This document shows positions 4,682 to 25,146 of a stretch of DNA of 31,692 nucleotides, piece by piece. The position numbers and the translations under genes are program-made. The DNA is taken from NCBI GenBank assembly GCA_038044305.1, contig JBBTAF010000012.1, positions 1 to 31,692 on the forward strand. Direction: 5' to 3'. Position 1 is the first letter of the stretch; each line of letters starts with the position of its first letter. The stretch is from Nanobdellota archaeon. GTDB taxonomy: Archaea > Nanobdellota > Nanobdellia > Pacearchaeales > GW2011-AR1. Below the pieces are notes generated by a model. That model ran no database searches and was not told where the DNA came from. It worked only from the letters and a program-made list of their open reading frames with translations.

Positions 4682-4725
4682 GAATATAACTACAAATCAG
4701 GTTATATAAAAGTTATTGATTATTC

Positions 4726-5133
4726 TCAAACATTTCCTATTTTTGATTCAACCTTGGAAATCTTTTCCAATAATCTTTCAATTTTATACTCCAAATCTTC
4801 CACCTTAATCCTAAGTGCATTTATATCTGAAGATGATGAAGACAAATCAGAAGACCCTGCACCAGAAACATTTGAAGTATTAGTTCCATAATATGAATCA
4901 GAACTTCCAGAAGAAGCAGAAGCCATTGAATCTAAAAAACCAAAGGGATTGCCCTCTCCATTTCCTTGAGATATAGCTGAACCTACTGGAACACTCGCTC
5001 CAGCAGACGAAGAAGCCGAGGTAAAATCAATCGTCTCACCAGAGGATTTTTGATCACTCTCTTTCAAAAGTCCCTTTTTCTTTAAAAGAGTATAGTCTAC
5101 GTATTCATTATTCGCCTCTTTAAATAATCCCAT
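4726..5133 (-). CDS. Hypothetical protein with Ser/Gly-rich middle and C-terminal coiled coil
   Basis: 135-aa ORF; TATA-like AGATTTAAATA about 25 nt upstream on the minus strand. Confidence 0.7.
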   Translation of the reverse strand: MGLFKEANNEYVDYTLLKKKGLLKESDQKSSGETIDFTSASSSAGASVPVGSAISQGNGEGNPFGFLDSMASASSGSSDSYYGTNTSNVSGAGSSDLSSSSSDINALRIKVEDLEYKIERLLEKISKVESKIGNV

Positions 5134-5181
5134 TATTAAATTAATAACCTATTTTATTTAAATCTGTCTATCCTATAAGGC

Positions 5182-5328
5182 TTAAAAGTTGTCTTAACAA
5201 CTTTTAAATAACGAGAATTTTCAATTCTCGGGATTAAAAATCTTCCTCAGAAGATTTTAAACATCAAAAACTTTTAGTTTTTGTGGCTTAAAAGTTCTAA
5301 GAAGGAACTTTTAAATAAACCCATTTCC
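5182..5328. repeat. Tandem hairpin array, copy 1 (five stem-loops; 5234-5328 is duplicated at 10279-10372)
   Basis: Stems: 5182-5207 (11 bp), 5212-5230 (8 bp), 5237-5258 (9 bp), 5265-5283 (8 bp), 5288-5314 (10 bp). Confidence 0.9.
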
Positions 5329-5353
5329 TTAAAAAAACATAAAAGAGGATAAA

Positions 5354-6931
5354 ATGACCATATCTATTCACAATCTCATTGCAACAATAAACCCAGACCT
5401 ATTCTGCGATTCAGAGGCAAAAAGTGCAGTCAAGAAACTAAAAAAAACTAAGGGAATTGCCGAAGCAACAAAAGAAGCAAAAATAAAATCCTCATCGTAT
5501 ATGGATTTTATAGAAATAGTTCATAAAAATGCTTCAGCCCTTGCAGGAATAAAATCGCCCATAGAAAAACACACTCTTTCCTATGATTCATTTGGAGAAG
5601 GACTTGAAGCAGTTTACTTTTGGCTTCTTGATAAAATGGGTGAAGACTTAAAAGTTGATAAAATTACAGATAATTTCGTTGCTTCCCCAGGTTCAAATCA
5701 CTTTGGAGAAATGGGAATAAGAATGTCAAAAATGCAGGAAGAAGCTTCGAAAATGTTAGGAGCAGCAAATACAGTAGTCAAATCTATACTTAATATCGTT
5801 TACGATTTAAAAGAATTTCAAACTCGTTTAGGAGTATATGACCGATTAAATTCAAAAGAAAAATCTATTAAAGATGCAGCATTACTTTCCCTAAAACAAA
5901 TTTGGATGGATACTGTAGACATCAAAAGAGGAAATAGCTCAATAAAAGCACTAGCCCTCTCTCAACAAGGAGGATTTGTAACTCTGATAGATGCATTTAT
6001 GGCAGCAGAAGACGAATCACTAACTTTTAAAGGCCAAGAAATGGATTTAAATGAAAGAATTAAAAGAATTATTCAGCAAAGAATAGTTGAATTTAATATC
6101 TGGTTAAAAGAATCTGAAAAAGAATTAAGAAAAAGATTTGAAATAGAAAAAACATATCTGAAAAGTCAAGTCAGTACAGTTCAACTCTATGCTCGTTGGG
6201 CAAAACCTTATTTAAGGGCTGCAAAAAAACTAGAACAATCTGAAAATTTCAACGGGAAAAATGAAATGGGAACTGCTACTCTTGTAAATTCATTTAATAC
6301 TGCTTTATTTGAACTTGTATTATTAGGAGAAGGAAAGTATAACCCAGCAGATGACATTTCCAACGGAGAGCTTCCTCCTTCAATGAGAACCCTTGTAAAA
6401 GAAAAGAAGGTAAGAACATATCATCAAATAGTTTTAGTAGAATTCAACTTTAGAACTATTCCTGAAAGAACCCAGCAGGGATATGGTTTTAGAGGAAGAG
6501 TGGATATCACATTCACAAGTTATGCCTTAAATGATGATGAAATAAAACTTTTAAGAAAACAAATAGAAAAAGATGATATAAACGACGTTCTCGGGTTAAT
6601 TGAAGGAGCAACAACAGAAAGCCTGTCACAGCTTCAATTAGATATAGACTCATTTCTAGGAAGCACAAAAGAAGAAGAAAAGGAAGAGGAAAAAGAAGAC
6701 ACAAATCCATTTTCTGCTTTGTTCTCAAGTTTCTCTGATTTGTTTGAATCTAAAAAAAATGAAGAAAAAAAGAAATCAGCTAAAGAAGAATCAGAAGAAA
6801 TAAAACCAGACTCCTATATGGAAGAGATATTGAGATCTCAAGCACTAATCGACGCTAGAAAAAAGTGTTACAGACTATATGATAGTTATAAAAGAGCACA
6901 TAAAATGCCAAGTTTGCCAGGATATGCCTAA
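5354..6931 (+). CDS. Hypothetical protein, largely alpha-helical/coiled-coil
   Basis: 525-aa ORF with GAGGA upstream; no catalytic motif recognised. Confidence 0.8.
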   Translation: MTISIHNLIATINPDLFCDSEAKSAVKKLKKTKGIAEATKEAKIKSSSYMDFIEIVHKNASALAGIKSPIEKHTLSYDSFGEGLEAVYFWLLDKMGEDLKVDKITDNFVASPGSNHFGEMGIRMSKMQEEASKMLGAANTVVKSILNIVYDLKEFQTRLGVYDRLNSKEKSIKDAALLSLKQIWMDTVDIKRGNSSIKALALSQQGGFVTLIDAFMAAEDESLTFKGQEMDLNERIKRIIQQRIVEFNIWLKESEKELRKRFEIEKTYLKSQVSTVQLYARWAKPYLRAAKKLEQSENFNGKNEMGTATLVNSFNTALFELVLLGEGKYNPADDISNGELPPSMRTLVKEKKVRTYHQIVLVEFNFRTIPERTQQGYGFRGRVDITFTSYALNDDEIKLLRKQIEKDDINDVLGLIEGATTESLSQLQLDIDSFLGSTKEEEKEEEKEDTNPFSALFSSFSDLFESKKNEEKKKSAKEESEEIKPDSYMEEILRSQALIDARKKCYRLYDSYKRAHKMPSLPGYA

Positions 6932-6932
6932 A

Positions 6933-7478
6933 ATGGCCAGAACAAAAAAGACAACTATTCTAAAAAGAGTAAAAATAAGAGAGATTAAAAGTAAGTTAAA
7001 AGTAAAAGACTTAAAAGATAACTCTGAAGAATTTGATGACGAATTTGAAGAAGAACCTGTATTTGTTCAAGAAAGACACACACCAAGAAGACTCACCTCA
7101 AAATTGAAAGTTCAACCAAGATCTTTGGAAGAAATTCCAGAGATAGAAACTGCTCCAGTCACCACAAATCAAAATAGAGAAGAAATAAAATATTCCTCTA
7201 CTTCAAAAGGAACTGAAACAAGAATAAGGTATGAAAGCCTAAGCGGAGGAAAACTGGAAAATTATCAAGGAGTAGGAAAAGATAAATATCATCATACAAA
7301 CGCAGTAAATGCTGAAGAAAAAATAAGAGAAGAACAAAAAGATAATAGAGCATACTCTGAAAGAAATCCATTCAACGATTCAAGCGAAAGACATTATCAA
7401 CCAAATGCATTCGATAATGGACTAAATTCTAAAGACAAGGAAAAAAGTGAGAAGGAAAAGAAAAGAGTAATGATGTAA
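6933..7478 (+). CDS. Hypothetical charged, low-complexity protein
   Basis: Track ORF is 6879-7478; ATG 6933 (MARTKK...), right after the upstream stop, is the more likely start. Confidence 0.65.
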   Translation: MARTKKTTILKRVKIREIKSKLKVKDLKDNSEEFDDEFEEEPVFVQERHTPRRLTSKLKVQPRSLEEIPEIETAPVTTNQNREEIKYSSTSKGTETRIRYESLSGGKLENYQGVGKDKYHHTNAVNAEEKIREEQKDNRAYSERNPFNDSSERHYQPNAFDNGLNSKDKEKSEKEKKRVMM

Positions 7479-7497
7479 CTGCTATTATTCTTCAAAA

Positions 7498-10227
7498 TTA
7501 CTTACGTTTAGTTCTTTTACCTTTTTTAAATATAAGTTTATATATTAAAAAGCCCACAATCAAAATGACAACAATCAAAATAATATAGATTTTTAATTTG
7601 TTGTAAGAATTATTATTACTATTTTCTATGGTTTCATTACTAACGTTTTGATTTTCCTGAGAAGAATTATTTTCTATCTCCTCATTAACCAACTTAGAGG
7701 AAATACTAATATCTGCTTTATATCCTTCAGAATTAATAATATTATGCAAAGTTATCAATAAAATTTTACCATCCAGAACAATCTCTTTTGTTTCTCCAAC
7801 TACTAGATTAATTATCTGAGGATTAGATGCAATAACAACAGTAACCATAGTAGAATTAATTGCGGATAATGTTAGTGTATGTCCATTAGTTCTAATGGCT
7901 AGTTTTATCTTTTCAGATAATGCTAAAGATTGATTTATAACTCCTGAATTGGATAAATCGGTTGATTCATAATCATAAACCTTTGCAACTACTGTTCCTC
8001 CTCCCCCTCCACCACTGCTACTTGAACTAACTACACTCTGAGAAGATGTTATAGTAAAAGAATACTGCGTTGAGTTTCCTATGTTTCCATATACATCAGT
8101 ACAATTAATACTCCAACTATGACTTCCTGCACTAAAAGACGTAGTAAATGTTGTATTTTGCTGATTTATATCAACCGAAGAATTAAAACTGGCAACACTT
8201 CCATCAACTATAAGAGAACAATTAGTATTGCTAATATCAGAAACATTAAACACAAAATTCAGAGAAGTTGATTCTGTGCTAAAAGAATTAGATGGAGAAA
8301 TCAAAGAAATAACTGGAGCAACAAGTTCAGGATCCGTTTTAAAATTAAGAGTATTTAACGCTCCTAAAACAATAGTAACATTAACACGTCCCTCCGAATT
8401 AGAATTAAGAGTACAATTAGAATTCAAAGAACAAGCAATACCATCATAAGATATGTTATAGATGCTATGCGATAAATTAAGTGCAACAGTAAAATTACCT
8501 CTTCCTTTTAATTGCAAAGTTGCATTTTTATTGTCATTATCATCGAACACATTAGAAAGCAATTGAGCATTAACTATATCACTTCCATTCTCTCCACTTA
8601 GCTGAACAATTCTAGGTCCTGTATAAAGATAAGTAAAATCAACAAAAGACTGCTGACTAAGATTTGAAAGAACAGAAGGTGTTGTTGCGGTCAATTTCAA
8701 TGAAATCCAATAGGGCCTCCATAAATAATCAGAAGTCAAGTTTAAACGAGTAAAATTGTTTACTCCAAATTTATAAAAATTATAACTTGTAATAACAGTT
8801 GTATAGTCTCCGTCTGTAGAATATGTTGCCCATTTTTCAAATTTAGAGCTAACACCACCATATGCAAGGTAAAACCATCCTACAGAAATATTTCTAATCA
8901 CAAAATAAGGAAATGTAATCATATCGGGCTGATATTGAACCCACTGTTCACAATGTCTTTCCTCAGAAGTGTTAGTTGGATAATTAAGGATAGAACCAGA
9001 ATCTGAACCATACCACGCCAATGGCTGTCCATGAGTAGGTTGATTTGCATGAAAATACATCCTCTGAGTATCTGAACTTACGTTTCCAACCAAAAAAATG
9101 AAATTTCTCATTTCAGTAATATTTTCATCTAAAATAGAAACATTTAACTTGAGAGTATAAATTCCTTGATTCATAGCACTAAAGTTTATAGTTAAATTTT
9201 CAGACCTATTTGAAGCCAAATATACCGAAGAAGGATATATAGTAAAATTATAGCGATAATTATAACTGGCAGTATTATTTGGATACAATATCGAAAATCG
9301 AAGAGAAATATTTGAATACTGAGCATAAGTTCTAGCAACAGATTCTAAGTCTAGCGAAGAATTAATCAAACTAGTTGCTAAATTATCAGCAAAACTGGAA
9401 TTTTTAACCACAAAACTGGCCTCACTATAAGAAAAAGTTTGTGCATTGAGGTTAGAACTTACAAAATTGAATAAATTATCAACAGCGTTATACAAATCAA
9501 AAAGTATAGAATTAGAATTAGCAGTTATATAACTAAAATTATTATTTCCACTATTCATATATAAATCAAAGCCCTTTCCATTAAAGTTAGAATTTACAAA
9601 ATTGAATAAATTGTACTCTGCACTATTAAAAAATACTCCGGCTGAATTAGAAGTAATATTTAAAAAATTAAAATTATTATAATCAACATTATCCAAATAA
9701 ACTCCTGCATAATTAAGTACTGCAGTTACCGAATTAAAAGTATTGTTATAAGATGACCCTGTCAACTGAATACCTCTAAAATTATTTAAAATAGTTAAAT
9801 TTTGAACTGTTAAATTTTGAATTGAAGATAAATATAATCCAAAATTATTAAAATTCACTGTATTATTTAGTAGAAGCGAATTATGTGCACTACTTAAATA
9901 AATTCCATACGCTCCTCCTTGACTTAAATTAAGAGTTACATTGCAATTTTTAATAGTAGAATTAATTTGATTAGAATATATCCCTATTCCAAGCAAAGAA
10001 ATATTTTTAATATAAAATCCCTTGCAATCCAGTACAATATTTTGTGCAGAAATATTGAAACACCCTGTATTATTGATTTGGTCTCCTTCTAAATTGTTAA
10101 TCATATCATAAGTGGTATTTGTCTGATTCAACTCTCTGCAAGAATTAACATTAACTGCATTAACCAACCCAATAAAAGAAAATAACGAAAATACAAAAAT
10201 CGCTAAGAAAACCTCTCTATTATTCAT
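7498..10227 (-). CDS. Cell-surface glycoprotein: signal peptide, NosD/CASH-like parallel beta-helix, Ig-like domain, C-terminal TM anchor
   Basis: N-terminal hydrophobic signal. CFNISAQNIVLDCKG and repeated GIYLxSxxN turns. APVISLISP...GSHSWSINCTDVYGNIGNS Ig-like module. Ser/Gly linker, TM helix and basic tail. Many N-x-S/T sequons. Confidence 0.8.
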   Translation of the reverse strand: MNNREVFLAIFVFSLFSFIGLVNAVNVNSCRELNQTNTTYDMINNLEGDQINNTGCFNISAQNIVLDCKGFYIKNISLLGIGIYSNQINSTIKNCNVTLNLSQGGAYGIYLSSAHNSLLLNNTVNFNNFGLYLSSIQNLTVQNLTILNNFRGIQLTGSSYNNTFNSVTAVLNYAGVYLDNVDYNNFNFLNITSNSAGVFFNSAEYNLFNFVNSNFNGKGFDLYMNSGNNNFSYITANSNSILFDLYNAVDNLFNFVSSNLNAQTFSYSEASFVVKNSSFADNLATSLINSSLDLESVARTYAQYSNISLRFSILYPNNTASYNYRYNFTIYPSSVYLASNRSENLTINFSAMNQGIYTLKLNVSILDENITEMRNFIFLVGNVSSDTQRMYFHANQPTHGQPLAWYGSDSGSILNYPTNTSEERHCEQWVQYQPDMITFPYFVIRNISVGWFYLAYGGVSSKFEKWATYSTDGDYTTVITSYNFYKFGVNNFTRLNLTSDYLWRPYWISLKLTATTPSVLSNLSQQSFVDFTYLYTGPRIVQLSGENGSDIVNAQLLSNVFDDNDNKNATLQLKGRGNFTVALNLSHSIYNISYDGIACSLNSNCTLNSNSEGRVNVTIVLGALNTLNFKTDPELVAPVISLISPSNSFSTESTSLNFVFNVSDISNTNCSLIVDGSVASFNSSVDINQQNTTFTTSFSAGSHSWSINCTDVYGNIGNSTQYSFTITSSQSVVSSSSSGGGGGGTVVAKVYDYESTDLSNSGVINQSLALSEKIKLAIRTNGHTLTLSAINSTMVTVVIASNPQIINLVVGETKEIVLDGKILLITLHNIINSEGYKADISISSKLVNEEIENNSSQENQNVSNETIENSNNNSYNKLKIYIILIVVILIVGFLIYKLIFKKGKRTKRK

Positions 10228-10278: not shown

Positions 10279-10372
10279 TTAAAAATCTTCCTCAGAAGAT
10301 TTTAAACATCAAAAACTTTTAGTTTTTGTGGCTTAAAAGTTCCCGAAGGAACTTTTAAATAAACCCATTTCC
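10279..10372. repeat. Tandem hairpin array, copy 2 (three stem-loops)
   Basis: 94 nt identical to 5234-5328 except the last loop region (GTTC-CC-GAAGGAAC vs GTTC-TAA-GAAGGAAC); same orientation, upstream of a plus-strand gene. Confidence 0.9.
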
Positions 10373-10379
10373 ATTAATA

Positions 10380-12293
10380 ATGGATAACAAAATGGGAGGA
10401 TATGAAAGTTTTTATGGCAGTTCAAACTATGGACTTAAGTCTAACTATGGAAATCCAATTAGTAACTATACTCCAGCAGGAAGTATTAATCTAGCATTAG
10501 ATCCCAGAACAGCCAATCAACTCAAAGAAGTATCTAAAAACCTTAACGCTGGAGCAAAATCTATGGAAGTTCAGCTAACTTTTCCACAAGTAGCAGAATC
10601 AATTCCAGATTCTCACTTAGAAGAAATAAACAGATTAAGAAAATTAACCAATATTGACCTTACTTTACACGGTCCACTTGTTGATCCAACTGGATTTACT
10701 GGAGAAGGAAATTTCGATCCAATAAAACAAAAACAAGCAGAAAGACAAATGTGGAATGCTGTGCAAAGAGCAACAAAGATTAATCCAGATGGAAATGTTA
10801 TTGTCACTCTTCACTCAAGCAATGGAATGCACGAGCCAGAAACAAGATATTGGGATGAAAAGAAAAATAAACATGTAGTTTCAAACATTGCAGTAGTAGA
10901 TGAAAGAACAGGACAAATTGGACAATTGCCACCAACAAATGCAGACTACTTATTAGAACAAGAAAAAGTAGCCGAAAAAGAAGGAAAGTCAGTAGCAGAA
11001 TTAAGCCTAGAAAAAAGAAACAGAGAAATCTGGCTAGACCAACTTTCTGGATTAAATCTGGAATTGCAAAGAGCAAAAGAAGTTTTGGATAGAAGAATCA
11101 TGACTCCAGAAGGAAAAATAGTAAAAATGGGAGGAGATGAAGGACAAAAAAATGCACTAGAAATGTTTAAGTTACATAAAGAAGGAAAAGGAGAAGAAAT
11201 AGAAAAGGTAGCTTTAGAATTAGCTAAAAAGTTCCCAGAAGAGATTAAACAAAAAGAGATACTAGAAAACACAAAAGAACAAATAGAAAACCTAGAACGT
11301 GCAGACATTTACATAAGACACTCATTCAATCAATTCAAAGAGTTATATAACAGAGCATATGGTGCAATTGAAAAAGATAAAAATGAACTAGACAAAGAAA
11401 AAATGGAAAACATAAAAAATAAAATAACAAAAGCAGTTGATACCAAAACAGGATATCTAAAGGACCCTTCTGAACTAATAAAATTTGCAGATACTTTAAC
11501 TGAAAGTATACAAACAATGAATTCAATCACGGAACCAAAAATGTTCAAGCAACTAAAAGAATTTGCCATTGAAAAATCAGCAGAAACATTCAGTAACATT
11601 GCTCTAAATGCATACAAAGAATTTAAAGATAAAGCACCAATTCTAAGTATAGAAAATCCACCAGTAGGAATGGGATTAAGTAGAGCTGAAGAACTGTCTA
11701 CATTAATAGAAGAATCGAGAGAACAATTCAAAATAAAACTTATAAAAGAAGGACTAAGTGAATCAGAAGCAAAAAAACAATCTGAAAAATTAATTGGAGC
11801 CACATGGGATGTAGGTCATATCAATATGCTTAGAAAATATGGATATGGAAATAAACAACTTCAAGAACAAGCAAAAATAATTGCTCCCTTTGTAAACAAG
11901 ATTCACCTTTCTGATAATTTTGGATATGAACATACTGAACTTCCAATGGGAATGGGAAATGTTCCTATGGCGGAACACCTAGAAGAACTTAAAAAAGCTC
12001 ATGGAGAAAAAATGAAAGAAATTAAGCAAGTCATAGAAACTGGAAACTGGTATCAGCATTTTCAAACTAATCCATTTGTAGAAACTCTTGCAGCATTTGG
12101 TTCTCCAATATACGGAGCAGGAAGCCAGCAATGGAACCAAGTAGCAAATGGATTTGCAGGTTATTTTTCAGGATACGGATTAAACCCAGACGTCCATCAT
12201 TCATTATATGGTGCAGGATTTGCAAATCTTCCAGCAGAATTAGGTGGCCAAATGCAAGGAAGAAGTAGACTTTCAGGTGCACCAATAGAATAA
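10380..12293 (+). CDS. Xylose isomerase-like/AP endonuclease 2 TIM-barrel protein with a large helical insertion
   Basis: Metal-ligand-like motifs LTLHGP, VTLHSS, LSIENPP, TWDVGHINM, IHLSDN, HTELPMGMGN; about 250-aa Lys/Glu-rich insert between TLHSS and IENP. Confidence 0.7.
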   Translation: MDNKMGGYESFYGSSNYGLKSNYGNPISNYTPAGSINLALDPRTANQLKEVSKNLNAGAKSMEVQLTFPQVAESIPDSHLEEINRLRKLTNIDLTLHGPLVDPTGFTGEGNFDPIKQKQAERQMWNAVQRATKINPDGNVIVTLHSSNGMHEPETRYWDEKKNKHVVSNIAVVDERTGQIGQLPPTNADYLLEQEKVAEKEGKSVAELSLEKRNREIWLDQLSGLNLELQRAKEVLDRRIMTPEGKIVKMGGDEGQKNALEMFKLHKEGKGEEIEKVALELAKKFPEEIKQKEILENTKEQIENLERADIYIRHSFNQFKELYNRAYGAIEKDKNELDKEKMENIKNKITKAVDTKTGYLKDPSELIKFADTLTESIQTMNSITEPKMFKQLKEFAIEKSAETFSNIALNAYKEFKDKAPILSIENPPVGMGLSRAEELSTLIEESREQFKIKLIKEGLSESEAKKQSEKLIGATWDVGHINMLRKYGYGNKQLQEQAKIIAPFVNKIHLSDNFGYEHTELPMGMGNVPMAEHLEELKKAHGEKMKEIKQVIETGNWYQHFQTNPFVETLAAFGSPIYGAGSQQWNQVANGFAGYFSGYGLNPDVHHSLYGAGFANLPAELGGQMQGRSRLSGAPIE

Positions 12294-15915: not shown

Positions 15916-16551
15916 ATGGAAAATAAAAAGAAGAGGATAATTATTTCTGCACTAATATCATTAATTATTTTTGTCGCACTAACCATTGCAGTGATTCAAC
16001 AAAATTCAACAATGAACAGTATAGATCTTTCAATTCAACAAAAAGTTTCAACAATAAGAACAAGTTCGGGAATATCTTTCTTTCAAACTCTCACTACAAT
16101 ACTAAATCCGGAAACACTAATAGCTATATTAGCTCTAATGGGATTTTATTTTTATTACAAAAAAAAGAACAAACTTGCAGGATTTCTAATTCTCGGAGCA
16201 GGATTAAGTTTTATAATCAAAGAACTTCTTAGTCTTTTGATTCAAAGAACTAGACCAATTCCTTATTTCATTGATGCTATTAGCTTTAGTTTTCCAAGCG
16301 GTCATGCAATAGGAGCAACGGTCTTTTTCCTAATTCTCTTTTTCATTCTAAGACCTAAAATTAAATCCAAACTCTCTAGAACTCTAATTCTCATGATTTC
16401 TATAATCATATTTTTATTAGCCTCGTTTGCAAGAATCTACCTAAATGTCCACTGGTTCTCAGATGTCCTTGCTAGCATCTTTCTAGGCACATTTGTAATT
16501 TGTCTTTCGTGGTTGATAGTCACAAGAAATAAATATAGTTCTTTGAATTAG
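15916..16551 (+). CDS. PAP2-family membrane phosphatase
   Basis: C1 K...RTRP, C2 SFPSGHA, C3 ARIYLNVHWFSDV; multiple TM helices. Confidence 0.92.
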   Translation: MENKKKRIIISALISLIIFVALTIAVIQQNSTMNSIDLSIQQKVSTIRTSSGISFFQTLTTILNPETLIAILALMGFYFYYKKKNKLAGFLILGAGLSFIIKELLSLLIQRTRPIPYFIDAISFSFPSGHAIGATVFFLILFFILRPKIKSKLSRTLILMISIIIFLLASFARIYLNVHWFSDVLASIFLGTFVICLSWLIVTRNKYSSLN

Positions 16552-16564
16552 TTATAAAAAGCTA

Positions 16565-17611
16565 CTATATCTTGCTCCATAAAACATCTATAATTTTTCT
16601 TTTTACTTTCTCACGTAACTTGTATGTATTTCCCCAAATTGCATAGGCTTGCCAACCTTGATAAGACTCATGTATACTATCAAAATTTAGAACTCCTTTT
16701 TCATAAAGTTCAATTTTCCTAAACATTGATTTATAATTCCTTTTTCTCAAGAGTCTTCTGTGATTAAAATTTCTAAAACCTACGAAATCAACTCCTCTTG
16801 AAAGAGAAATAACTCTGGATTTATTAGGATGCAATTCAATTTTTAAATTTTCTTTTAAGAAACCCTCAATTTGTTTTTTCCAAACTTTTAGTTGTTTTTC
16901 AGACTTATGAAAGATAACAAAATCATCAACATATCTGATATAATATTTTACTTTTAGAGTGTGTTTGACAAAGTAATCTAACTCGTTGAGATAGACATTA
17001 GCAAAAAATTGAGAAGTATAATTTCCCAAAGGCATTCCCTTAACTCGTTCTCCCCCCTCCTCCGAAATATTAGTCTGATTATTTAGAATCTGTTTGATGA
17101 GCCAAATAACCTCTTCATCTGCTATTTTCTTTCTCAAAATATTAATTAGAATTTCATGATCAATTTCTTGAAAGTAGTGCTTTATGTCTGCCTTAAAACA
17201 AAAAGCTCCTTGAGAAAAATTTTGGGTAACTTTTCTCTGAAACTTCCTAAATCTCTTCAAAGCGAATGTCGTTCCTTTTCTCATTTGATTAGCACAAGAG
17301 TCATATATAAACAACTTTTCCAAAAAAGGCTTAATTACATTGATTAAAGCATGATGAACTATTCTATCTCTAAAATCTGATTTAGAAATAACCCTAGTTT
17401 TAGGGTCTCTTAGAACAAATGTATTCAATGGGCGAGGTTTGTATGTCTTATTAGTTAATTCATAATGTAAATCTAATAAATTCTTTTCAGAATCCTTACA
17501 AAACTCAATCACATCTTCTCTGCCAGTTTTATCCTTTTTTGCTTTTCTCAATGCAATAAACAAATTTCCCATTGATGCTAGAAAATAATATAATTTATTA
17601 TAGGTTTTCAT
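16565..17611 (-). CDS. DGR reverse transcriptase
   Basis: RDRIVHHAL, ADIKHYF, GMPLGNYTSQFFANVYL, YIRYVDDFV, DFVGF; 348 aa with no maturase or endonuclease extension; adjacent to TR. Confidence 0.96.
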   Translation of the reverse strand: MKTYNKLYYFLASMGNLFIALRKAKKDKTGREDVIEFCKDSEKNLLDLHYELTNKTYKPRPLNTFVLRDPKTRVISKSDFRDRIVHHALINVIKPFLEKLFIYDSCANQMRKGTTFALKRFRKFQRKVTQNFSQGAFCFKADIKHYFQEIDHEILINILRKKIADEEVIWLIKQILNNQTNISEEGGERVKGMPLGNYTSQFFANVYLNELDYFVKHTLKVKYYIRYVDDFVIFHKSEKQLKVWKKQIEGFLKENLKIELHPNKSRVISLSRGVDFVGFRNFNHRRLLRKRNYKSMFRKIELYEKGVLNFDSIHESYQGWQAYAIWGNTYKLREKVKRKIIDVLWSKI

Positions 17612-17639
17612 TGTGAATCAATCATGCATGATTTTAGAG

Positions 17640-17724
17640 CTATTTGACCATTCGAGTTCGAGTTAGCAAGATTCTCGTTGTTCGAGTTAACATTGAGGTT
17701 CCTGTTCAAATACAACCTCGATAG
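17640..17724 (-). ncRNA. DGR template repeat (TR)
   Basis: 85-nt ungapped match to 18026-18110 and 20871-20955, with 15 mismatches, all at TR adenines (coding sense). Reads LSRLYLNRNLNVNSNNENLANSNSNGQI in the VR frame, with 10 AAY codons. Confidence 0.95.
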
Positions 17725-17969
17725 GATAGCCTTTTACTTTTCATGTCACCATCACTTCAGGTTTCATATTTCTATTACTATCTGTTGCGATTGTATTTTA
17801 TAGCTTAAATTAAGCCATAAGCAAAGGGCGTGTAGCTCAATCAAATATACGTGCATGATTGAGAATTTTAATTAAAAATACGCTCTTTTATTAATTTCGT
17901 TGAACGAATATGCCCTATTGAAACATACTATTTTCAAGTTCGCTTTTCATCTTTTCCTACCTTCTCTTC

Positions 17970-18869
17970 CTATGGAGCTCCAACCCCAAATTTTTTCGGC
18001 ACGGTGGCTTCGCCACTGACGCAAACTACCTGACCACCCGAGCCCGAGTAAGCAAGATCCTCGTAGTTCGAGCTAACATCGAGGACCCCGTACAAATACA
18101 ACCTCGATAGTCCAGAATTTATAGTCCATAATTGTCTATTCTTTCCATTTGGATCTGTACTATAAATCTGACTAGGTAATCCAGTTTGAGGATTCATTTT
18201 AGCAGAATCAATATAACTTCCGTTTTTACTCATCAGAATGGGTGCCTCAAAACATAAATCAGGATTGTTTAGAACAAAAGCCAATTTATGAGGAGAATTG
18301 GAATCTTTCTTTAATGATAGAGCATTTAGAGGAATTACATATGCACTATTATTTTTCAGTGAGGGATTATGTCTCCTCAATTGTACAGAAATATTCTTTG
18401 CCAGATACTCATTTGGATCTGCATCAGTTCTCCAAATTAAAGAAGATTCTTCATAATGATTTGCAAATTCAATACTTTTTTTATTAAGAATTGCCTCCAA
18501 TTCTCCTTGAGTTGCAGTTCTTATTTTCATTGGACTTAGAATCTGATTTGCAAGTATAACTGCAAATGGATTTGAGCCAGTAACAACTTTACCACTATCA
18601 TCCCAATTCAACACTTTCAATGCAGAAGCGTCTGCATAATCTCTCTTTACTCTTGCATTATACTCCTGAAGAAAATCTTTTCCAAATTGTCCTTTTAGCA
18701 AGAATGCAGATTTGAAAGTTATGACTCCAGTTGGTACTGGAGAAACTACTCCTGCATTTGGATCAGGTTGAACAACAGGAGCTACTGGAGCAGGAGGCAA
18801 TTTAGCCTCTTGGTTTTTTCTCTCTGCATATCTCATCAGCCAAGATTGATATAAATCAGAGTTGCTCAT
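17970..18869 (-). CDS. DGR target (variable) protein, copy A; probable C-terminal CLec-fold domain
   Basis: C-terminal GLSRLYLYGVLDVSSNYEDLAYSGSGGQVVCV carries the VR; Pro-rich linker near the N-terminus. The CLec fold is inferred from known archaeal DGR targets. Confidence 0.92.
   Translation of the reverse strand: MSNSDLYQSWLMRYAERKNQEAKLPPAPVAPVVQPDPNAGVVSPVPTGVITFKSAFLLKGQFGKDFLQEYNARVKRDYADASALKVLNWDDSGKVVTGSNPFAVILANQILSPMKIRTATQGELEAILNKKSIEFANHYEESSLIWRTDADPNEYLAKNISVQLRRHNPSLKNNSAYVIPLNALSLKKDSNSPHKLAFVLNNPDLCFEAPILMSKNGSYIDSAKMNPQTGLPSQIYSTDPNGKNRQLWTINSGLSRLYLYGVLDVSSNYEDLAYSGSGGQVVCVSGEATVPKKFGVGAP
18004..18016 (-). promoter_or_regulatory. DNA hairpin 3' of VR-A (putative DGR homing signal)
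   Basis: GTGGC-GAA-GCCAC, 9 nt downstream of the VR; contains the GCGAAGC mini-hairpin; absent after TR. Confidence 0.75.
18026..18110 (-). repeat. DGR variable repeat VR-A
   Basis: 70/85 identity to TR; 11 A>G and 4 A>T changes. Confidence 0.95.
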
Positions 18870-19011
18870 TATTTTCCTCCTCTGATTTAAGCAAAATGTC
18901 TAAACCTTGTTCGAGTGCGTGACTTTTATTTCTAAACTTGCCAAGTTCAACTAAGTTTTCAATTAGTTTTATCTTTTCTCCATCTATACTAATACTCAAT
19001 TTTTGTTTCAT
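18856..19011 (-). CDS. Ribbon-helix-helix (CopG/Arc/MetJ-like) DNA-binding protein, 51 aa (absent from the ORF track)
   Basis: MKQKLSISIDGEKIKLIENLVELGKFRNKSHALEQGLDILLKSEEENNEQL*: beta-strand KLSISI, helix, GKFRNKS turn, helix. ATGA overlap with the vWA stop codon. Confidence 0.8.
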   Translation of the reverse strand: MKQKLSISIDGEKIKLIENLVELGKFRNKSHALEQGLDILLKSEEENNEQL

Positions 19012-20795
19012 TCTGAACCTCCAATGATTTTAGGACTTTGTTTATAATAACTAGATACAAATGACACCATTGCTTTTGATAAGTCATCGTCTCCATTTAC
19101 ATTTACAACTGGAATGCCTATTCCCTTCAAGTAATTAGAGAAAGCAGTATCTCCGCCTATCTGAATGTGAGCATAATCTGATGTTCTAACCTTCGCCTCG
19201 AACCTTGTCTTTTGTGTATCATCTATACTAAATTCTCCATCAGAAATAGATAATACTAAAGAGTTCTCTTCCAATTCACTTTCCAATCCATTAATATCTA
19301 AAGAAGTTCCTCCAGAAGGTTTAGTTAATAATGACTTTGCAACAAGTGCAGAATTGCCTCTTACACTAGACTCTCCAGAGAATCCTATAACTCTATTCTC
19401 GATATACTGCCCAACTCCCTGTCTTTCGAAAAAATTGTCTATTCCGAAATATCCTTTCAGAGCAAAATGATGCTTGCTATTATCACCCCATGAAATATAA
19501 CTTGTATTTCCAATATTCACAGGATTTCCTGATGCATCTGTTTCATTTTTAGTATTCAAAGCCATACTTCCAGACCTATCTATTAAAGCCAACTTGAAAT
19601 TTGGAAATTTGTGAGGATGCTTTTTATATGAAACTGGATAATCAATTTGATGTTTTGTAGTTCTTACTTCCCATTCTCCATCTTTTAGTCCTATTCCTTT
19701 AAATTTGAATTTTCGTTCATCCTCTTTGACAAATCTTCTTCCAAATCTAACTAAAGGCATTGACTGACTTGCAGAATAATGAGTTGTTTCAACTGGAACT
19801 TCTTTTGAAATTCTTCTATATAAATCATAAAGTTGCTCTTCCAAGTTTCTATGAGCCAATGGAACTTCACCTGCCTGATACCTACCAAATGCAACATTCT
19901 GTCTATTAATAGGCATTTTCATTTCTCTGTCAAATGGATTTCTTTCCTCGGAATTTTCATCTCCTTCACCAGAGCCAAACATTTTTTGCTTTGGAATGTC
20001 ATCCAACAGTTTACCCAAATTAACTGCAAAATTATATCCCAATTGACCCCACATTTCTGCTCTTTGCTTTAAATCCCTCCGATTGAACAATTTCTCAAAT
20101 CCCTTCTTTTCATGGAGTCTAAAAACATTTTCTTCCTGAACCATAGTTTTCATTTCCCCTAAAAATCCATTCACTGCTTCATCTACTTCTTCTTTTCCAG
20201 TAAAAAATCTCCTCAACAAAGTATAATCAGAAGCATTACCTGCCAATCTCAAATTAATTTTCACAAATGCTTCATAAAAAGGATTGAACTTGCCCCTTTC
20301 TGAATTAACAATTCCCTGATTATTCCAAAATAATGTCTGCCCTGCAAAATTTGTATGCCTTCTACAATTAACATTATCTAAAACATCTTCAAATGCATTT
20401 GTTACATATGTTTCGAGTCCTTTTTTCCCAACTGAATCCAGTCCCCTAGTAATTGCATCTTTTATTCTTTCATGCGTTTCTATATCATAAGGACATCCGT
20501 ACCTTTCTCCAACTTTATTTTCCCTGTGTCCTGTTTCATGTTGCAAAATATCTTCTCCCACTTCCAGCAAGACATCTTTCATACTTTTCTTATATACAAA
20601 CGATTGAGTTTCCTCATCTGGAACTAAATTCAAATCTTCTCCATATGAAATACCTATTTCTTTCCAATCGGTAGTAATATATGCTGCAAGTGATTTCCCT
20701 CTAACTTCTTCCACTCTTAATCTAGTTCCAACTAAACCTATCCTATTCTTTTTCTTTTCGAGTTTTTGTTTAATTTGTTCAAGTTCGCTTTTCAT
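19008..20795 (-). CDS. vWA-domain protein with an N-terminal HExxH metallopeptidase-like region
   Basis: MIDAS elements LALIDRSGSM, GGTS, SISDGE; N-terminal ILQHETGH followed by NAFEDVLDN. Confidence 0.8.
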   Translation of the reverse strand: MKSELEQIKQKLEKKKNRIGLVGTRLRVEEVRGKSLAAYITTDWKEIGISYGEDLNLVPDEETQSFVYKKSMKDVLLEVGEDILQHETGHRENKVGERYGCPYDIETHERIKDAITRGLDSVGKKGLETYVTNAFEDVLDNVNCRRHTNFAGQTLFWNNQGIVNSERGKFNPFYEAFVKINLRLAGNASDYTLLRRFFTGKEEVDEAVNGFLGEMKTMVQEENVFRLHEKKGFEKLFNRRDLKQRAEMWGQLGYNFAVNLGKLLDDIPKQKMFGSGEGDENSEERNPFDREMKMPINRQNVAFGRYQAGEVPLAHRNLEEQLYDLYRRISKEVPVETTHYSASQSMPLVRFGRRFVKEDERKFKFKGIGLKDGEWEVRTTKHQIDYPVSYKKHPHKFPNFKLALIDRSGSMALNTKNETDASGNPVNIGNTSYISWGDNSKHHFALKGYFGIDNFFERQGVGQYIENRVIGFSGESSVRGNSALVAKSLLTKPSGGTSLDINGLESELEENSLVLSISDGEFSIDDTQKTRFEAKVRTSDYAHIQIGGDTAFSNYLKGIGIPVVNVNGDDDLSKAMVSFVSSYYKQSPKIIGGSE

Positions 20796-20814
20796 CTTTT
20801 CCTACCTTCTCTTC

Positions 20815-21714
20815 CTATGGAGCTCCAACCCCAAATTTTTTCGGCACGGTGGCTTCGCCACTGACGCAAACTACCTGACCACCCGAGCCCGAGTAAGCAA
20901 GATCCTCGTAGTTCGAGCTAACATCGAGGACCCCGTACAAATACAACCTCGATAGTCCAGAATTTATAGTCCATAATTGTCTATTCTTTCCATTTGGATC
21001 TGTACTATAAATCTGACTAGGTAATCCAGTTTGAGGATTCATTTTAGCAGAATCAATATAACTTCCGTTTTTACTCATCAGAATGGGTGCCTCAAAACAT
21101 AAATCAGGATTGTTTAGAACAAAAGCCAATTTATGAGGAGAATTGGAATCTTTCTTTAATGATAGAGCATTTAGAGGAATTACATATGCACTATTATTTT
21201 TCAGTGAGGGATTATGTCTCCTCAATTGTACAGAAATATTCTTTGCCAGATACTCATTTGGATCTGCATCAGTTCTCCAAATTAAAGAAGATTCTTCATA
21301 ATGATTTGCAAATTCAATACTTTTTTTATTAAGAATTGCCTCCAATTCTCCTTGAGTTGCAGTTCTTATTTTCATTGGACTTAGAATCTGATTTGCAAGT
21401 ATAACTGCAAATGGATTTGAGCCAGTAACAACTTTACCACTATCATCCCAATTCAACACTTTCAATGCAGAAGCGTCTGCATAATCTCTCTTTACTCTTG
21501 CATTATACTCCTGAAGAAAATCTTTTCCAAATTGTCCTTTTAGCAAGAATGCAGATTTGAAAGTTATGACTCCAGTTGGTACTGGAGAAACTACTCCTGC
21601 ATTTGGATCAGGTTGAACAACAGGAGCTACTGGAGCAGGAGGCAATTTAGCCTCTTGGTTTTTTCTCTCTGCATATCTCATCAGCCAAGATTGATATAAA
21701 TCAGAGTTGCTCAT
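20815..21714 (-). CDS. DGR target (variable) protein, copy B
   Basis: Identical 299-aa sequence; TAATG overlap with the ATPase stop codon. Confidence 0.92.
   Translation of the reverse strand: MSNSDLYQSWLMRYAERKNQEAKLPPAPVAPVVQPDPNAGVVSPVPTGVITFKSAFLLKGQFGKDFLQEYNARVKRDYADASALKVLNWDDSGKVVTGSNPFAVILANQILSPMKIRTATQGELEAILNKKSIEFANHYEESSLIWRTDADPNEYLAKNISVQLRRHNPSLKNNSAYVIPLNALSLKKDSNSPHKLAFVLNNPDLCFEAPILMSKNGSYIDSAKMNPQTGLPSQIYSTDPNGKNRQLWTINSGLSRLYLYGVLDVSSNYEDLAYSGSGGQVVCVSGEATVPKKFGVGAP
20849..20861 (-). promoter_or_regulatory. DNA hairpin 3' of VR-B
   Basis: GTGGC-GAA-GCCAC, same as copy A. Confidence 0.75.
20871..20955 (-). repeat. DGR variable repeat VR-B
   Basis: Identical to VR-A; adenine-only mismatches to TR. 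Confidence 0.95.
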
Positions 21715-23036
21715 TATTTTCCTCCGCCACTTTGATGTACTTGTTCCACAATTTCTCTAAGCTTAACTCTTGCAGAAGAGTTATCTAATTTATTCTTCTG
21801 AGCATAATCCTCTATCGCTTCTCTTACTGGAGACCATTTTCCCTTAACAGGTGAAATATCATTTAACAAATCTGCATCAGTTACTCCTGCCTCCGCCAAA
21901 GCAACTGCCTCCTCGAGTTTTGAAGATTTTTCAGATATCTCTGTTCTGTTCCCAGAATCGTTTCCAAGAAGAGTATCAAACGCAGAATAAACATCCCCTC
22001 CATGTTCCTGCTCAACATATCTAGGAGCCATTACTCCAGAATATGGAATAGTAAATCTCAAAGCATCCAAAAACAAAGGAATTACTTGAGGATTTTCTCC
22101 CTTTGCTTCTCCAATCATTTGCAAAGCACCTGTAAGAGCTATTGCAGACAAAACGCCTCTAGGAGAAAGAGGAAATAATTTATTTTCATCATTATCAGTT
22201 TTGATTCCTTCCAAATTTGGCCATCTTGAGTCACAGGCAATTTTACTATTTCCCTTTACATTTTCCAAATAGTCAAGTCCTTCAGTAAAATAAACACCTA
22301 AAATAGGAAGAATTGGATGAGTCTCTCTTCCTTTAAACTCTCTATTTAACGCCAAAATTTCTTCTCTTGTAATTCCTTTGGTATTAGTAGGCATATCCGA
22401 TTGAGGACTTCTCTTACCTCTAAAAACATCTAAAAGATTAACTGGTCTTGCTCTATAATCTGGATGATCTAATTTGACAATTAAATGCATTCTGTCTTTT
22501 AGAGCCCTATCAGAATCTGATACTCCCACATACTCACCATCACCCAAGTTTCCAGTTGCAAAACCTACACTATATCCATCAGTTCCCAAATTCAATATTC
22601 TACCATCGTGAACCAATTTTCCATCGAAAAAGTCGAAGAAATAGTTCTGTACTATTGGAGGTGCTCTATTTAGCTCATCTATAAAGAACAAGTTCTTTCT
22701 CACATTTTCAGTCAATTGAACTAAATCTCTGTCAGTTACTGCATTTTTAATTTTATCAAGTCTCATTTGCTTTAGTAATTCAGAAGGCTCAAAATCAGGT
22801 CTTCCCATAGCATAGCAAGAAGAATCTGGAAAACATCCTATTAAGTCATTGCCAAGCTGAGTTTTTCCTCTTCCAGTGCCTCCAACAAAATAGGCATTCA
22901 GTCTTGCAATTAATGGAGCTTTTACTAAAATATCTCTTGCAGTAAAAGATGCACCTCCAAGAGAGATTACTCTATCATTTTGATAACTTCCACTTTCCAA
23001 TTTTTCTATTGCTAACCTATTATTTTCGGATACCAT
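21714..23036 (-). CDS. MoxR-like AAA+ ATPase
   Basis: Walker A GGTGRGKT, Walker B FFIDELNRAPP, sensor-1 ATGN, DRALKDRM arginine-finger region; vWA partner in the same operon. Confidence 0.88.
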   Translation of the reverse strand: MVSENNRLAIEKLESGSYQNDRVISLGGASFTARDILVKAPLIARLNAYFVGGTGRGKTQLGNDLIGCFPDSSCYAMGRPDFEPSELLKQMRLDKIKNAVTDRDLVQLTENVRKNLFFIDELNRAPPIVQNYFFDFFDGKLVHDGRILNLGTDGYSVGFATGNLGDGEYVGVSDSDRALKDRMHLIVKLDHPDYRARPVNLLDVFRGKRSPQSDMPTNTKGITREEILALNREFKGRETHPILPILGVYFTEGLDYLENVKGNSKIACDSRWPNLEGIKTDNDENKLFPLSPRGVLSAIALTGALQMIGEAKGENPQVIPLFLDALRFTIPYSGVMAPRYVEQEHGGDVYSAFDTLLGNDSGNRTEISEKSSKLEEAVALAEAGVTDADLLNDISPVKGKWSPVREAIEDYAQKNKLDNSSARVKLREIVEQVHQSGGGK

Positions 23037-23775: not shown

Positions 23776-24036
23776 ATGGTTACCACAATACAAATCGATG
23801 AAAGTCTAAAAAATAGACTAAATTCTATCAAGATACATAAAAGAGAAACATACAACGATTTAATTTTAAGATTAGTTCATTCATTCTCCCCAAAAAATCA
23901 AGATAAAGAAAGTCTTGTAGAAACGATAGAAATCCTGTCAGATCCTGAAATTATGAGGGGAATAGCAAAGGGAATAGATTATTATAATAAAGGAAAGTTC
24001 AAAACACTAAAGCAAGTAAGAAAGGAGATAGAATAG
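23776..24036 (+). CDS. Antitoxin (RHH-like N-terminus, ETIEILSDPE C-terminus)
   Basis: MVTTIQID...ETYNDLILRL DNA-binding pattern; 1 nt upstream of a RelE gene. Confidence 0.75.
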   Translation: MVTTIQIDESLKNRLNSIKIHKRETYNDLILRLVHSFSPKNQDKESLVETIEILSDPEIMRGIAKGIDYYNKGKFKTLKQVRKEIE

Positions 24037-24037
24037 A

Positions 24038-24316
24038 ATGCCTTTTGAGGTGATTCTTTCAGAGGAAGCAGAAGCATTCATAAAGAAATGTGATAAATCT
24101 ACTGGAAATAGAATTTTAGACAAAATTGAATTATTATCCGAAAACCCTAGATTAGGAAAACCTTTAACAGCAACTCTTGCAGGCTTTTGGAGTTTAAGGA
24201 TTGGAGATTACAGAACAATTTATCAAATAAAAGACAATGAACTTATTGTGTTAGTTATCAAAATAGGACATAGAAAAAATGTTTATGACTATACTCCCAA
24301 ATATCTTTTCTTATGA
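24038..24316 (+). CDS. relE: RelE/ParE-family toxin
   Basis: GKPL...WSLRIGDYRTIYQI....IVLVIKIGHRKNVY. Confidence 0.9.
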   Translation: MPFEVILSEEAEAFIKKCDKSTGNRILDKIELLSENPRLGKPLTATLAGFWSLRIGDYRTIYQIKDNELIVLVIKIGHRKNVYDYTPKYLFL

Positions 24317-25146
24317 ACTGTCATATACCTTCTAATAAAATACTTTACAAAACCCTCTTCATCTTTTTGTAATGCCTTATAATACGAACGTCTTTTTTTG
24401 TATTCTATTATTAACATAGGATATCCTGCCTTCCACAAAATATCATTCATTAATAATCTTCCAATTCTTCCGTTTCCATCGCCAAAAGGATGAATCTTTT
24501 CAAATTTATAGTGTGCTCTTGCAGACAATTCAACTGGATTAATCTTCGATTGCTCGATAAATTTTATCATTTTATCCATCATTCCTTCTACTTCCTGCCA
24601 ATCCGGAGCAAGATATAATCCAATTCTCACTAAATAGTCTCTAAATTTTCCAGAGATATCAGATTTACTCTCTCCAAATATCCTTTGATGCCATCCAAGA
24701 AGCAACTTATTAGTTATCTTTTCTCGTTTTTCTAGCATATTTAAAAATACATTACTATGCGCCTCTGCTTCCCTCACGTCTCTTATGGGTTTGTTAGGAG
24801 AAATTTTATCTTGAACAATTTCTCTAACCTCTTCCAAGGTAATAGTAGAACCTTCTATAGCGTTAGTATTATAAGTAAAAGCAATAGATATCTCTTCCAA
24901 TTCTTTTTTCTTTACACTTTCAGGAATATTTTTCCATTCTTTTTGAAAACTGTTTCTTATTTTTTCTATTCTATTCCAAAAATCTTCATTTGCCTCTCTC
25001 TCAAATTCTCTTTCTATTTCTTCAATATTTTTGGGAATTTCTTTGCCCAAGTATTTTTGCTTGCTTATTACCTTATTTCCTTTCCTTATATTAATATAAA
25101 GATAATAATACTTACTTTTTCCTTTTATTTTTTCCCTTATGACCAT
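24289..25146 (-). CDS. Fic-domain protein
   Basis: Canonical HPFGDGNGRIGR motif; YNTNAIEG; N-terminal YYYLYINIR...KYLG region. Confidence 0.93.
   Translation of the reverse strand: MVIREKIKGKSKYYYLYINIRKGNKVISKQKYLGKEIPKNIEEIEREFEREANEDFWNRIEKIRNSFQKEWKNIPESVKKKELEEISIAFTYNTNAIEGSTITLEEVREIVQDKISPNKPIRDVREAEAHSNVFLNMLEKREKITNKLLLGWHQRIFGESKSDISGKFRDYLVRIGLYLAPDWQEVEGMMDKMIKFIEQSKINPVELSARAHYKFEKIHPFGDGNGRIGRLLMNDILWKAGYPMLIIEYKKRRSYYKALQKDEEGFVKYFIRRYMTVHKKRYLGV

Follow-up and report, generated by a model that had tools for sequence, protein, structure and literature searches.

Template repeat, variable repeats, and reverse transcriptase

The window analyzed here is the whole of contig JBBTAF010000012.1 of a Nanobdellota archaeon (31,692 nt; contig C12 of a 658 kb genome assembly in 59 contigs, 78.5% complete and with 32% G+C), and it contains the components of a diversity-generating retroelement (DGR): a reverse transcriptase (RT) gene, a non-coding template repeat (TR), a structured RNA of the Rfam family RT-16, and two variable repeats (VRs) that lie within two copies of a target gene. 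Every DGR element of the locus is on the minus strand, where the operon runs in the order AAA_5 MoxR-like ATPase, target copy B, a 595-aa protein, a 51-aa protein, target copy A, RT-16, TR, and RT. The public runs that contain the window sequence are groundwater metagenomes, and homologs of the window proteins carry the names Pacearchaeota, Woesearchaeota, or Nanoarchaeota, which makes the host a DPANN archaeon. For comparison with the population we used the assembled contigs, not the reads, of four runs (X1-X4) from two samples of one study (X4 and X1 represent one sample, X3 the other), bearing in mind that contigs drop rare variants. The features at the core of the locus are as follows.

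16565..17611, minus: RT assigned to the DGR type, 348 aa, uninterrupted open reading frame (ORF) with LGNYTSQ, YVDD, and an Arg equivalent to R74 of the Bordetella RT (bRT)
17640-17724, minus: TR, 85 nt, with 29 A and 10 AAY codons in the VR frame; non-coding, without an intron-like insert
17721..17863, minus: RT-16 structured RNA (Rfam RF03019), 101.6 bits against a gathering score of 50, model positions 1-158, full length
17970..18869, minus: target copy A, 299 aa, C-type-lectin-like variable protein, with VR-A at residues 254-281
18026-18110, minus: VR-A, inside target copy A
18004-18016 (copy A, inside the ORF) and 20849-20861 (copy B), minus: GC hairpin GTGGC-GAA-GCCAC with a GAA triloop
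20815..21714, minus: target copy B, identical to copy A in this assembly
20871-20955, minus: VR-B, inside target copy B, identical to VR-A

The repeat finder returned a single family of three 85-nt copies (TR, VR-A, and VR-B), and TR aligns with VR without a gap over all 85 nt. The alignment has 15 mismatches, every one of which falls on one of the 29 adenines of TR (11 A>G, 4 A>T, and 0 A>C), and none of the 56 non-A positions differs (0/56); the probability that 15/15 differences would fall on A by chance is 1e-7 by a binomial and 4e-9 by a hypergeometric calculation. Read in the VR frame, the ten AAY codons of TR have become Y, V, D, S, N, Y, D, Y, G, and G, and a stop codon is out of reach by mutation for every A-bearing TR codon. 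The resulting variant space is 15^10 = 5.8 × 10^11 for the AAY codons, 8 × 10^13 when the other A-bearing codons are added, and 2 × 10^15 with the last two codons as well. An earlier note made from the sequence alone had reported the same 85 ungapped nt, the restriction to 15 of 29 TR adenines, the ten codon outcomes, about 6 × 10^11 stop-free variants, and an uninterrupted RT with YVDD, and all of these held when the alignment was re-counted and the codons were re-read. The 11/4/0 spectrum is typical of the class: among the 345 TR-to-VR substitutions counted at 26 related loci, 318 have A as the template base (196 A>G, 109 A>T, and 13 A>C).

The 3′ ends of the repeats read CAGGTAG in VR and CAAATAG in TR, and at the 26 related loci TR mostly ends in GGAATAG and VR in GGGGTAG. 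In the DGRs described from Nanoarchaeota, which occur several to a genome and have a GRA-triloop hairpin in the target ORF, the corresponding ends are TGGGGT (VR) and TGGAAT (TR) (Paul et al., 2015, PMC4372165), whereas those of the window are CAGGT and CAAAT. The first of the two end differences in the window (CAA>CAG) is silent, the second (ATA>GTA) lies in a codon whose Val hardly varies in the target family, and both are retained in an alternative VR allele from run X3 (see below). Because of the match to the Nanoarchaeota pair of initiation of mutagenic homing (IMH) and IMH* sequences, the retention in the alternative allele, and the nearly invariant Val, we conclude that the last two A>G differences are probably a fixed IMH/IMH* mark, in which case about 13 of the 15 differences would record mutagenesis. 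The mutagenic retrohoming signature claimed in the earlier note therefore stands as regards adenine specificity, with the proviso that these last two changes probably do not belong to it. The GC hairpin follows the VR in both target copies, and a GRA-triloop GC hairpin was found after the VR at 14 of 27 related loci compared with 26 of 842 control windows. At the level of sequence, both an inverted repeat downstream of VR and the IMH/IMH* asymmetry are thus present, as in DGRs.

The TR of an independent assembly of the locus (L009, from ENA) is identical to that of the window. At four RT-16 loci from related genomes (L019, L022, L024, and L017) the match between TR and VR is interrupted and resumes ~30 nt later, just before the ...CGGAATAAC end; the TRs of these loci hold an insert that is absent from VR, and the window TR is without it. 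We also observed, in three runs, a contig that has TR-like sequence over window positions 17677-17736, with 8 differences of mixed type, and that joins position 17422 to 17641. Rather than a variant of the window TR, this contig probably represents the TR of some related element, for instance that of contig C38 (described below).

Judged by its sequence, the window RT is of the DGR type. It matches Pfam RVT_1 (2.8e-22), and its LGNYTSQ corresponds to the DGR RT signature [I/V/L]GxxxSQ, at which place group II and retroviral RTs have QGxxxSP. The best match in the PDB was 8ub7_A (5.6e-35 over the full length), a chain that agrees in length and opening residues with the RT in the Bordetella phage BMP-1 record; LtrA scored 2.5e-18. 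The closest RT from a phage record was that of the archaeal virus ANMV-1 (41% identity, 2e-73) and the closest plasmid RT was cyanobacterial and adjoined an annotated avd (40%, 2e-71), with group II RTs at ~25% identity and ~1e-15. In a tree of 24 RTs (20 DGR-type, four group II, and no retron RT; two truncated rows, L021 and L038, were excluded), the window RT fell within the clade of 20 DGR-type RTs, which includes five known or phage-borne ones and is parted at 100/100 from the group II RTs. Closest to it in the tree were the RT on contig C38 and RTs from the same phylum. The earlier note had suggested an RT phylogeny as a check on its DGR call, and the outcome agrees with that call, the retron model also scoring far below its cut-off.

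Three DGR-type RTs are encoded in the 658 kb of the genome. Contig C4 has a second complete TR/VR pair, with 12 A-only mismatches, a GGA-triloop hairpin, and ends of GGGGT vs. GAAT. Contig C38 is too short to contain its VR, and a repeat pair on that contig (1440-1485 / 3058-3103) was rejected as a chance match with mismatches of all types. As separate observations, the third DGR-type RT (G000 contig C4:18096-19103) lies within a 491-aa open frame that extends ~150 aa beyond the RT match, and the part of the window RT gene that encodes the YVDD region (16878-17040) had a contig depth of up to 210 in X1, vs. 5-7 in its flanks, with many loose ends and joints; from this depth we deduce that the aquifer community has many related DGR RTs.

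The locus is a complete DGR of the archaeal kind described by Paul et al. (2015). With the Nanoarchaeota DGRs of DUSEL4 and SCGC AAA011-G17 (PMC4372165) and the variable protein AvpA (Handa et al., 2016, PMC5006420; 5ioo) it has in common a small DPANN host genome with several DGRs, a C-terminal VR in an orphan protein whose fold we read as a divergent C-type lectin, a GRA-triloop hairpin inside the target ORF, a repeat end with GG in VR vs. AA in TR, and a diversity of the same order (1e11-1e13) without the risk of stop codons. It differs in that its target belongs to another protein family than AvpA (no profile match to 5ioo, structural Z 5.2), in that this target sits twice in a MoxR/vWA operon, and in the presence of RT-16, an RNA not described in the Nanoarchaeota DGR paper. 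With the DGR of Bordetella phage BPP-1 (bRT, Avd, and the avd-TR-Sp RNA; PMC6182149, bioRxiv 10.1101/2023.10.23.563531) the locus shares an RT homologous over its full length, with the same signature motif and the R74 equivalent, adenine-specific transfer from TR to VR, a hairpin downstream of VR, and pairing (predicted in the window) of sequences up- and downstream of TR. In contrast, the BPP-1 element has Avd, which the window locus is without, its Sp segment is 140 nt long where the window has 28 nt from TR to the RT start, its large structured RNA lies 3′ and not 5′ of TR, and its target is a phage tail fiber, whereas the window belongs to a cellular archaeal host and has another target. 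On its own the DGR call changes little, being a further example of elements that are abundant in DPANN archaea.

Target copies, activity in the population, and alternative explanations

The target protein had no match in Pfam, NCBIfam, or PADLOC, its AlphaFold DB clusters hold unnamed proteins only, and a profile of 29 target homologs found no match among PDB sequences, including that of AvpA (5ioo). The family comprises 28 homologs, all unnamed, in which the VR scaffold residues L, L, S, L, A, S, G, and VV are conserved and the alignment columns at the AAY codons vary freely; on account of these variable columns the whole family looks DGR-targeted. In an exhaustive structural comparison of the predicted model (pLDDT 74, pTM 0.76), the Thermus DGR variable protein TaqVP came first (Z 6.4), and the structural matches listed were almost all C-type lectin/FGE-like folds, including the Nanoarchaeota AvpA (5ioo, Z 5.2) and Treponema TvpA. 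Since this match list is nearly uniform, though with modest Z-scores, we read the modeled target as a divergent C-type lectin fold.

The two target copies lie in an exact repeat of 948 nt (17933-18880 = 20778-21725), whose edges include the end of the ATPase gene (its last codons) as well as the initial 18 nt of the vWA gene. The latter form the beginning of a short remnant at the downstream edge of the repeat, beside copy A.

17915..17950, minus: orphan stub MKSELENSMFQ*, of which the first 18 nt repeat the beginning of the vWA gene

In a relative the genes are laid out alike (ATPase, copy, vWA protein, 51-aa protein, copy), with copies that are 75% identical and homology that extends ~34 nt past the stop codon. 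That these copies are only 75% identical implies that the two-copy layout is old.

Support for activity of the element in the population came from run X3, in which a contig (~18014-18169) carries a VR that differs from the window VR at 13 positions, 13/13 of them TR-adenine positions. This contig spans 54 VR positions, 20 of them TR-adenine, and its differences include one A>C. The alternative allele is about as deep in X3 as the window allele (3.4 of 6.6), and the ordinary strain differences nearby are of all types, unlike those in the VR. No other VR polymorphism was seen in the public data, and its restriction to TR adenines is the pattern that the earlier note had proposed to look for. This is support at the contig level and from a sample other than the source sample. 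The suggestion of recent activity made in the earlier note is accordingly supported to this extent by the alternative allele but not by the contigs of the source sample, which show one allele.

How far the two copies can be taken at face value depends on the assembly, and the “exact” 948-nt duplication may partly be an assembly simplification. We give a little less than even odds to an explanation in which the real copies differ in the patch 18336-18651, the assembler threaded one allele through both, and the equality of the VRs is that of a consensus only; it is about as likely that the copies have recently been homogenized. L009 is identical to the window over 2683 nt but for 28 differences, all of which cluster in 18336-18651, and its variant letters recur in X3 and in X4, which represents the same sample as X1. 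In X1 itself a contig ends exactly at 18335, where the depth drops from 13.7 to 6.8, as would fit two copies collapsing to one, and the 75% identity of the relative's copies likewise speaks for a real difference. However, these comparisons are of contigs and two co-existing strains would look alike, and every repeat/unique junction inside the stretch compared was found in the contigs of three runs. A difference between the copies would leave the TR/VR observation untouched.

Several results weigh against the reading of the locus as a functional DGR, and some of them favor an element that looks intact but is idle, with a VR that was written earlier and is now inherited and an alternative allele that is an old strain difference. 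VR-A and VR-B are identical, and there is therefore no sign of independent diversification. The contigs of the source sample, which holds the window best, show one VR allele and no variant, and the window allele recurs exactly in L009, whose gene has 28 differences elsewhere; turnover is therefore not fast. The contig with the alternative allele is short and may stem from copy A, copy B, or another strain. No Avd-size ORF lies between target and RT, a Pfam scan of the small ORFs of the window found no Avd, PF05635 (Avd) had no match over six frames of the 78.5%-complete genome, and the Bordetella RT is inactive without Avd. As regards the target, a Foldseek search of the model against the PDB gave no match (best E 0.39), and the lectin-fold match is modest (Z 5-6.4). 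Against an idle element stand the 13 differences of the alternative allele, all at TR-adenine and none at other VR positions where nearby strain differences are of all types, the absence of any drift between TR and VR at 56 non-A positions, and the intact RT ORF and catalytic motifs; we think it unlikely that the element is idle. Avd is found in about 74% of DGRs and is not defining, architecture A, 29% of one survey, being without accessory genes. The A1 DGRs have the same core of target, TR, and RT with no avd, HRDC, MSL, or CH1 gene, and Avd-independent homing has already been proposed for them (Wu et al., 2018, PMC5758913); we infer that the window RT likewise works without Avd. That the locus is not a DGR at all, but a group II intron, retron, or defense RT beside an ordinary decayed duplication, has in its favor NCBIfam/PADLOC matches to group II, Drt, and retron models, all of them far below the cut-offs (for group II RT/maturase TIGR04416, 144.8 bits vs. 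300; for the retron St85 model NF038233, 54 bits vs. 235). The RT has SQ and not QGxxxSP and is in a separate clade from group II RTs, no retron RT was among its PDB matches, Rfam found neither a group II RNA domain nor a retron RNA in 16400-19100, and differences confined to adenine have the chance probability of ~1e-7 given above. We consider this explanation so improbable as to be practically negligible, and conclude that the locus is likely to be a functional DGR of the Avd-less Nanoarchaeota/DPANN type.

The RT-16 RNA and its predicted pairing around the template

RT-16 was described as a motif near RT genes with its function left open, together with the suggestion of a possible DGR role for some of the RT motifs (Weinberg et al., 2017, PMC5737381), and no later functional assignment of it was found in the literature searched. 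In the window the same full-length motif (RF03019) adjoins an RT gene and is here fused to a DGR template, its 3′ end falling inside the first nucleotides of TR. RT-16 lies upstream of TR and the RT gene at all three DGR-type RT loci of this genome, and 35 of 151 genomes from the phylum have it, as against 0 of 14 control genomes. In 21 of 30 RT-16 loci examined, the motif is followed 97-178 nt downstream by a DGR-type RT in the same orientation. Of 28 testable loci, 27 have a TR immediately 3′ of the motif and a VR upstream, and in all 27 (27/27) the 5′ boundary of TR lies between -7 and +7 nt from the RT-16 3′ end. The survey that describes architecture A1 gave no RNA element or mechanism for its class (Wu et al., 2018), whereas the window locus has the RT-16 RNA.

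The 5′ part of RT-16 is complementary to sequence on the far side of TR.

17617..17642, minus: TR 3′ flank, from the UAG of the IMH*-like end to 6 nt before the start codon of the RT gene; predicted to pair with the RT-16 5′ part, and with a palindrome at 17620-17633

The RT-16 segment just 5′ of a conserved CACG (...GGGCUA) is complementary to the sequence that begins at the UA of the TR ...AAUAG end. At 19 parsable loci the cognate duplexes of this closing stem had a mean of -11.2 kcal/mol vs. -6.2 kcal/mol for non-cognate ones, and 0 of 5000 permutations were as low. An outer helix, between the RT-16 5′ end and the flank 10-30 nt past TR, is strong at ~10 of 27 loci, the window included; here 0 of 20000 permutations were as low, and the covariation signal comes from the strong subset. 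The window RNA from 17596 to 17866 (271 nt) has a minimum free energy of -63.1 kcal/mol (z -3.66), with 0 of 200 shuffles as good, and its predicted fold has a 22-bp stem in two parts that encloses RT-16 and TR (outer, 17863-17853/17627-17617; inner, 17842-17833/17642-17630). This closing stem comes at the expense of the local 5′ hairpin in the Rfam RT-16 model. At the window locus the upstream pairing partner lies ~110-130 nt before TR; in other taxa pairings have been reported from 40 nt upstream and 100 nt downstream of TR, and in Bordetella the RNAs up- and downstream of TR pair, position the primer, and stop the enzyme.

A canonical bulge-helix-bulge (3-4-3, as for excision by tRNA-splicing endonuclease) was also considered, and none was present in the closing stem of the window or in the duplexes inspected. 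Separately, an A/T-rich TATA-like stretch (TTTTTAATTAAAA) occurs at window 17864-17890, 5-18 nt before the first RT-16 base. It is pure conjecture that this is a promoter, in which case transcription might start inside the RT-16 5′ hairpin arm, and such a start would favor the long-range stem.

By analogy with Bordetella, we infer that RT-16 takes over the role of the avd and Sp RNA segments, such that its 3′ end would set the 5′ boundary of TR (stop) and its 5′ part, through pairing with the TR 3′ flank, would serve in the start or positioning of synthesis. Rather more tentatively, and with the chances somewhat against it, we propose for Avd-less archaeal DGRs in general that RT-16 does the work of both Bordetella Avd and Sp RNA. 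In this proposal the 3′ helix, which adjoins the first nucleotide of TR, would stop the cDNA, the covarying duplex of the 5′ part would close the entire template into a loop, the conserved CUA/CACG junction would lie beside the first templated adenines and possibly act as a cis-primer, and the local hairpin and the long-range stem would be alternative states. From the anatomy of the locus and the Bordetella model, the element as a whole would operate through a single transcript comprising the RT-16 RNA, the 85-nt TR, and the RT gene. From TR the RT would make a cDNA with misincorporation opposite adenines, and the cDNA would replace the VR at the 3′ end of the C-type-lectin-like gene, with homing guided by the GG mark on the VR side (IMH; TR has AA) and the downstream GC hairpin with its GAA triloop. 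In this way the orphan Rfam family RT-16 would gain a concrete place in a mechanism. The locus is a clean Avd-less case and suited to the question of how cDNA synthesis by a DGR RT is primed and stopped in the absence of Avd, since its template RNA (RT-16, TR, and the 28-nt spacer) is small and defined.

The MoxR/vWA operon and neighboring features

The target copies share their operon with a MoxR-type AAA+ ATPase and a vWA/MIDAS protein, and between the latter and copy A there is a further small gene.

21714..23036, minus: MoxR-like AAA+ ATPase (Pfam AAA_5, 7e-8), first gene of the operon
19008..20795, minus: HExxH-vWA protein, 595 aa, with an N-terminal HExxH-type motif domain and a C-terminal vWA (MIDAS) domain, as predicted
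18856..19011, minus: ribbon-helix-helix-like protein, 51 aa, with a weak CdrS match

The 595-aa protein remained blank in Pfam even at E 10. Invariant in its family are H86 and H90 of the HExxH-type motif and D406, S408, S410, T497, and D519 of the MIDAS, and its predicted model (pLDDT 82) matched vWA/MIDAS domains, including Rea1-MIDAS and NorD, with a Foldseek probability of 1.00; the vWA assignment is made on the basis of these invariant residues and the predicted fold. The protein may be a metallopeptidase joined to a MIDAS domain. More than 100 DPANN homologs share its HExxH-type domain, which is without any Pfam family. The 51-aa ORF is found at the same place in L009 and in L010-L013.

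The gene order of the ATPase operon is the same in two relatives, L010 (a JGI contig) and L011. L010 has the same ATPase/copy/vWA/51-aa/copy operon at 3851-8909, with two diverged copies, and no RT-16, TR, or RT within 8 kb of it, and thus the TR-RT module seems to be separable from the operon, or to act on it at a distance. Asn codons abound in one VR of L010, as though it had diverged little from a template.

A MoxR AAA+ ATPase and a vWA protein likewise share one operon with a C-type lectin module varied by a DGR in the MoxR-vWA ternary conflict systems of multicellular bacteria (Kaur et al., 2020, PMC7159879; Dore et al., 2024, PMC10907252). In those bacterial systems the lectin is fused to the vWA protein, whereas in this DPANN archaeon it is a free-standing protein of 299 aa that is present twice. 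No VMAP turned up in the operon, although no search aimed at VMAP was made. Because the target is present twice inside the operon, we suggest that the element may vary the ligand-binding face of the third component of the MoxR/vWA system. A DGR-varied lectin in an archaeal MoxR/vWA operon would be of interest, as discussion of such an arrangement has until now concerned multicellular bacteria, and the arrangement has been said not to apply to the DGRs of candidate phyla radiation (CPR)/DPANN organisms.

Two further observations concern other parts of the window. Just beyond the operon, positions 23776-24316 and 24289-25146 hold an antitoxin of the VapB/DUF7557 type accompanied by a ParE-family toxin and, in addition, a Fic-domain protein. 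A direct repeat of 103 nt, 94% identical, occurs at window 5234-5336 and 10279-10380, both copies being intergenic and inverted-repeat-like.

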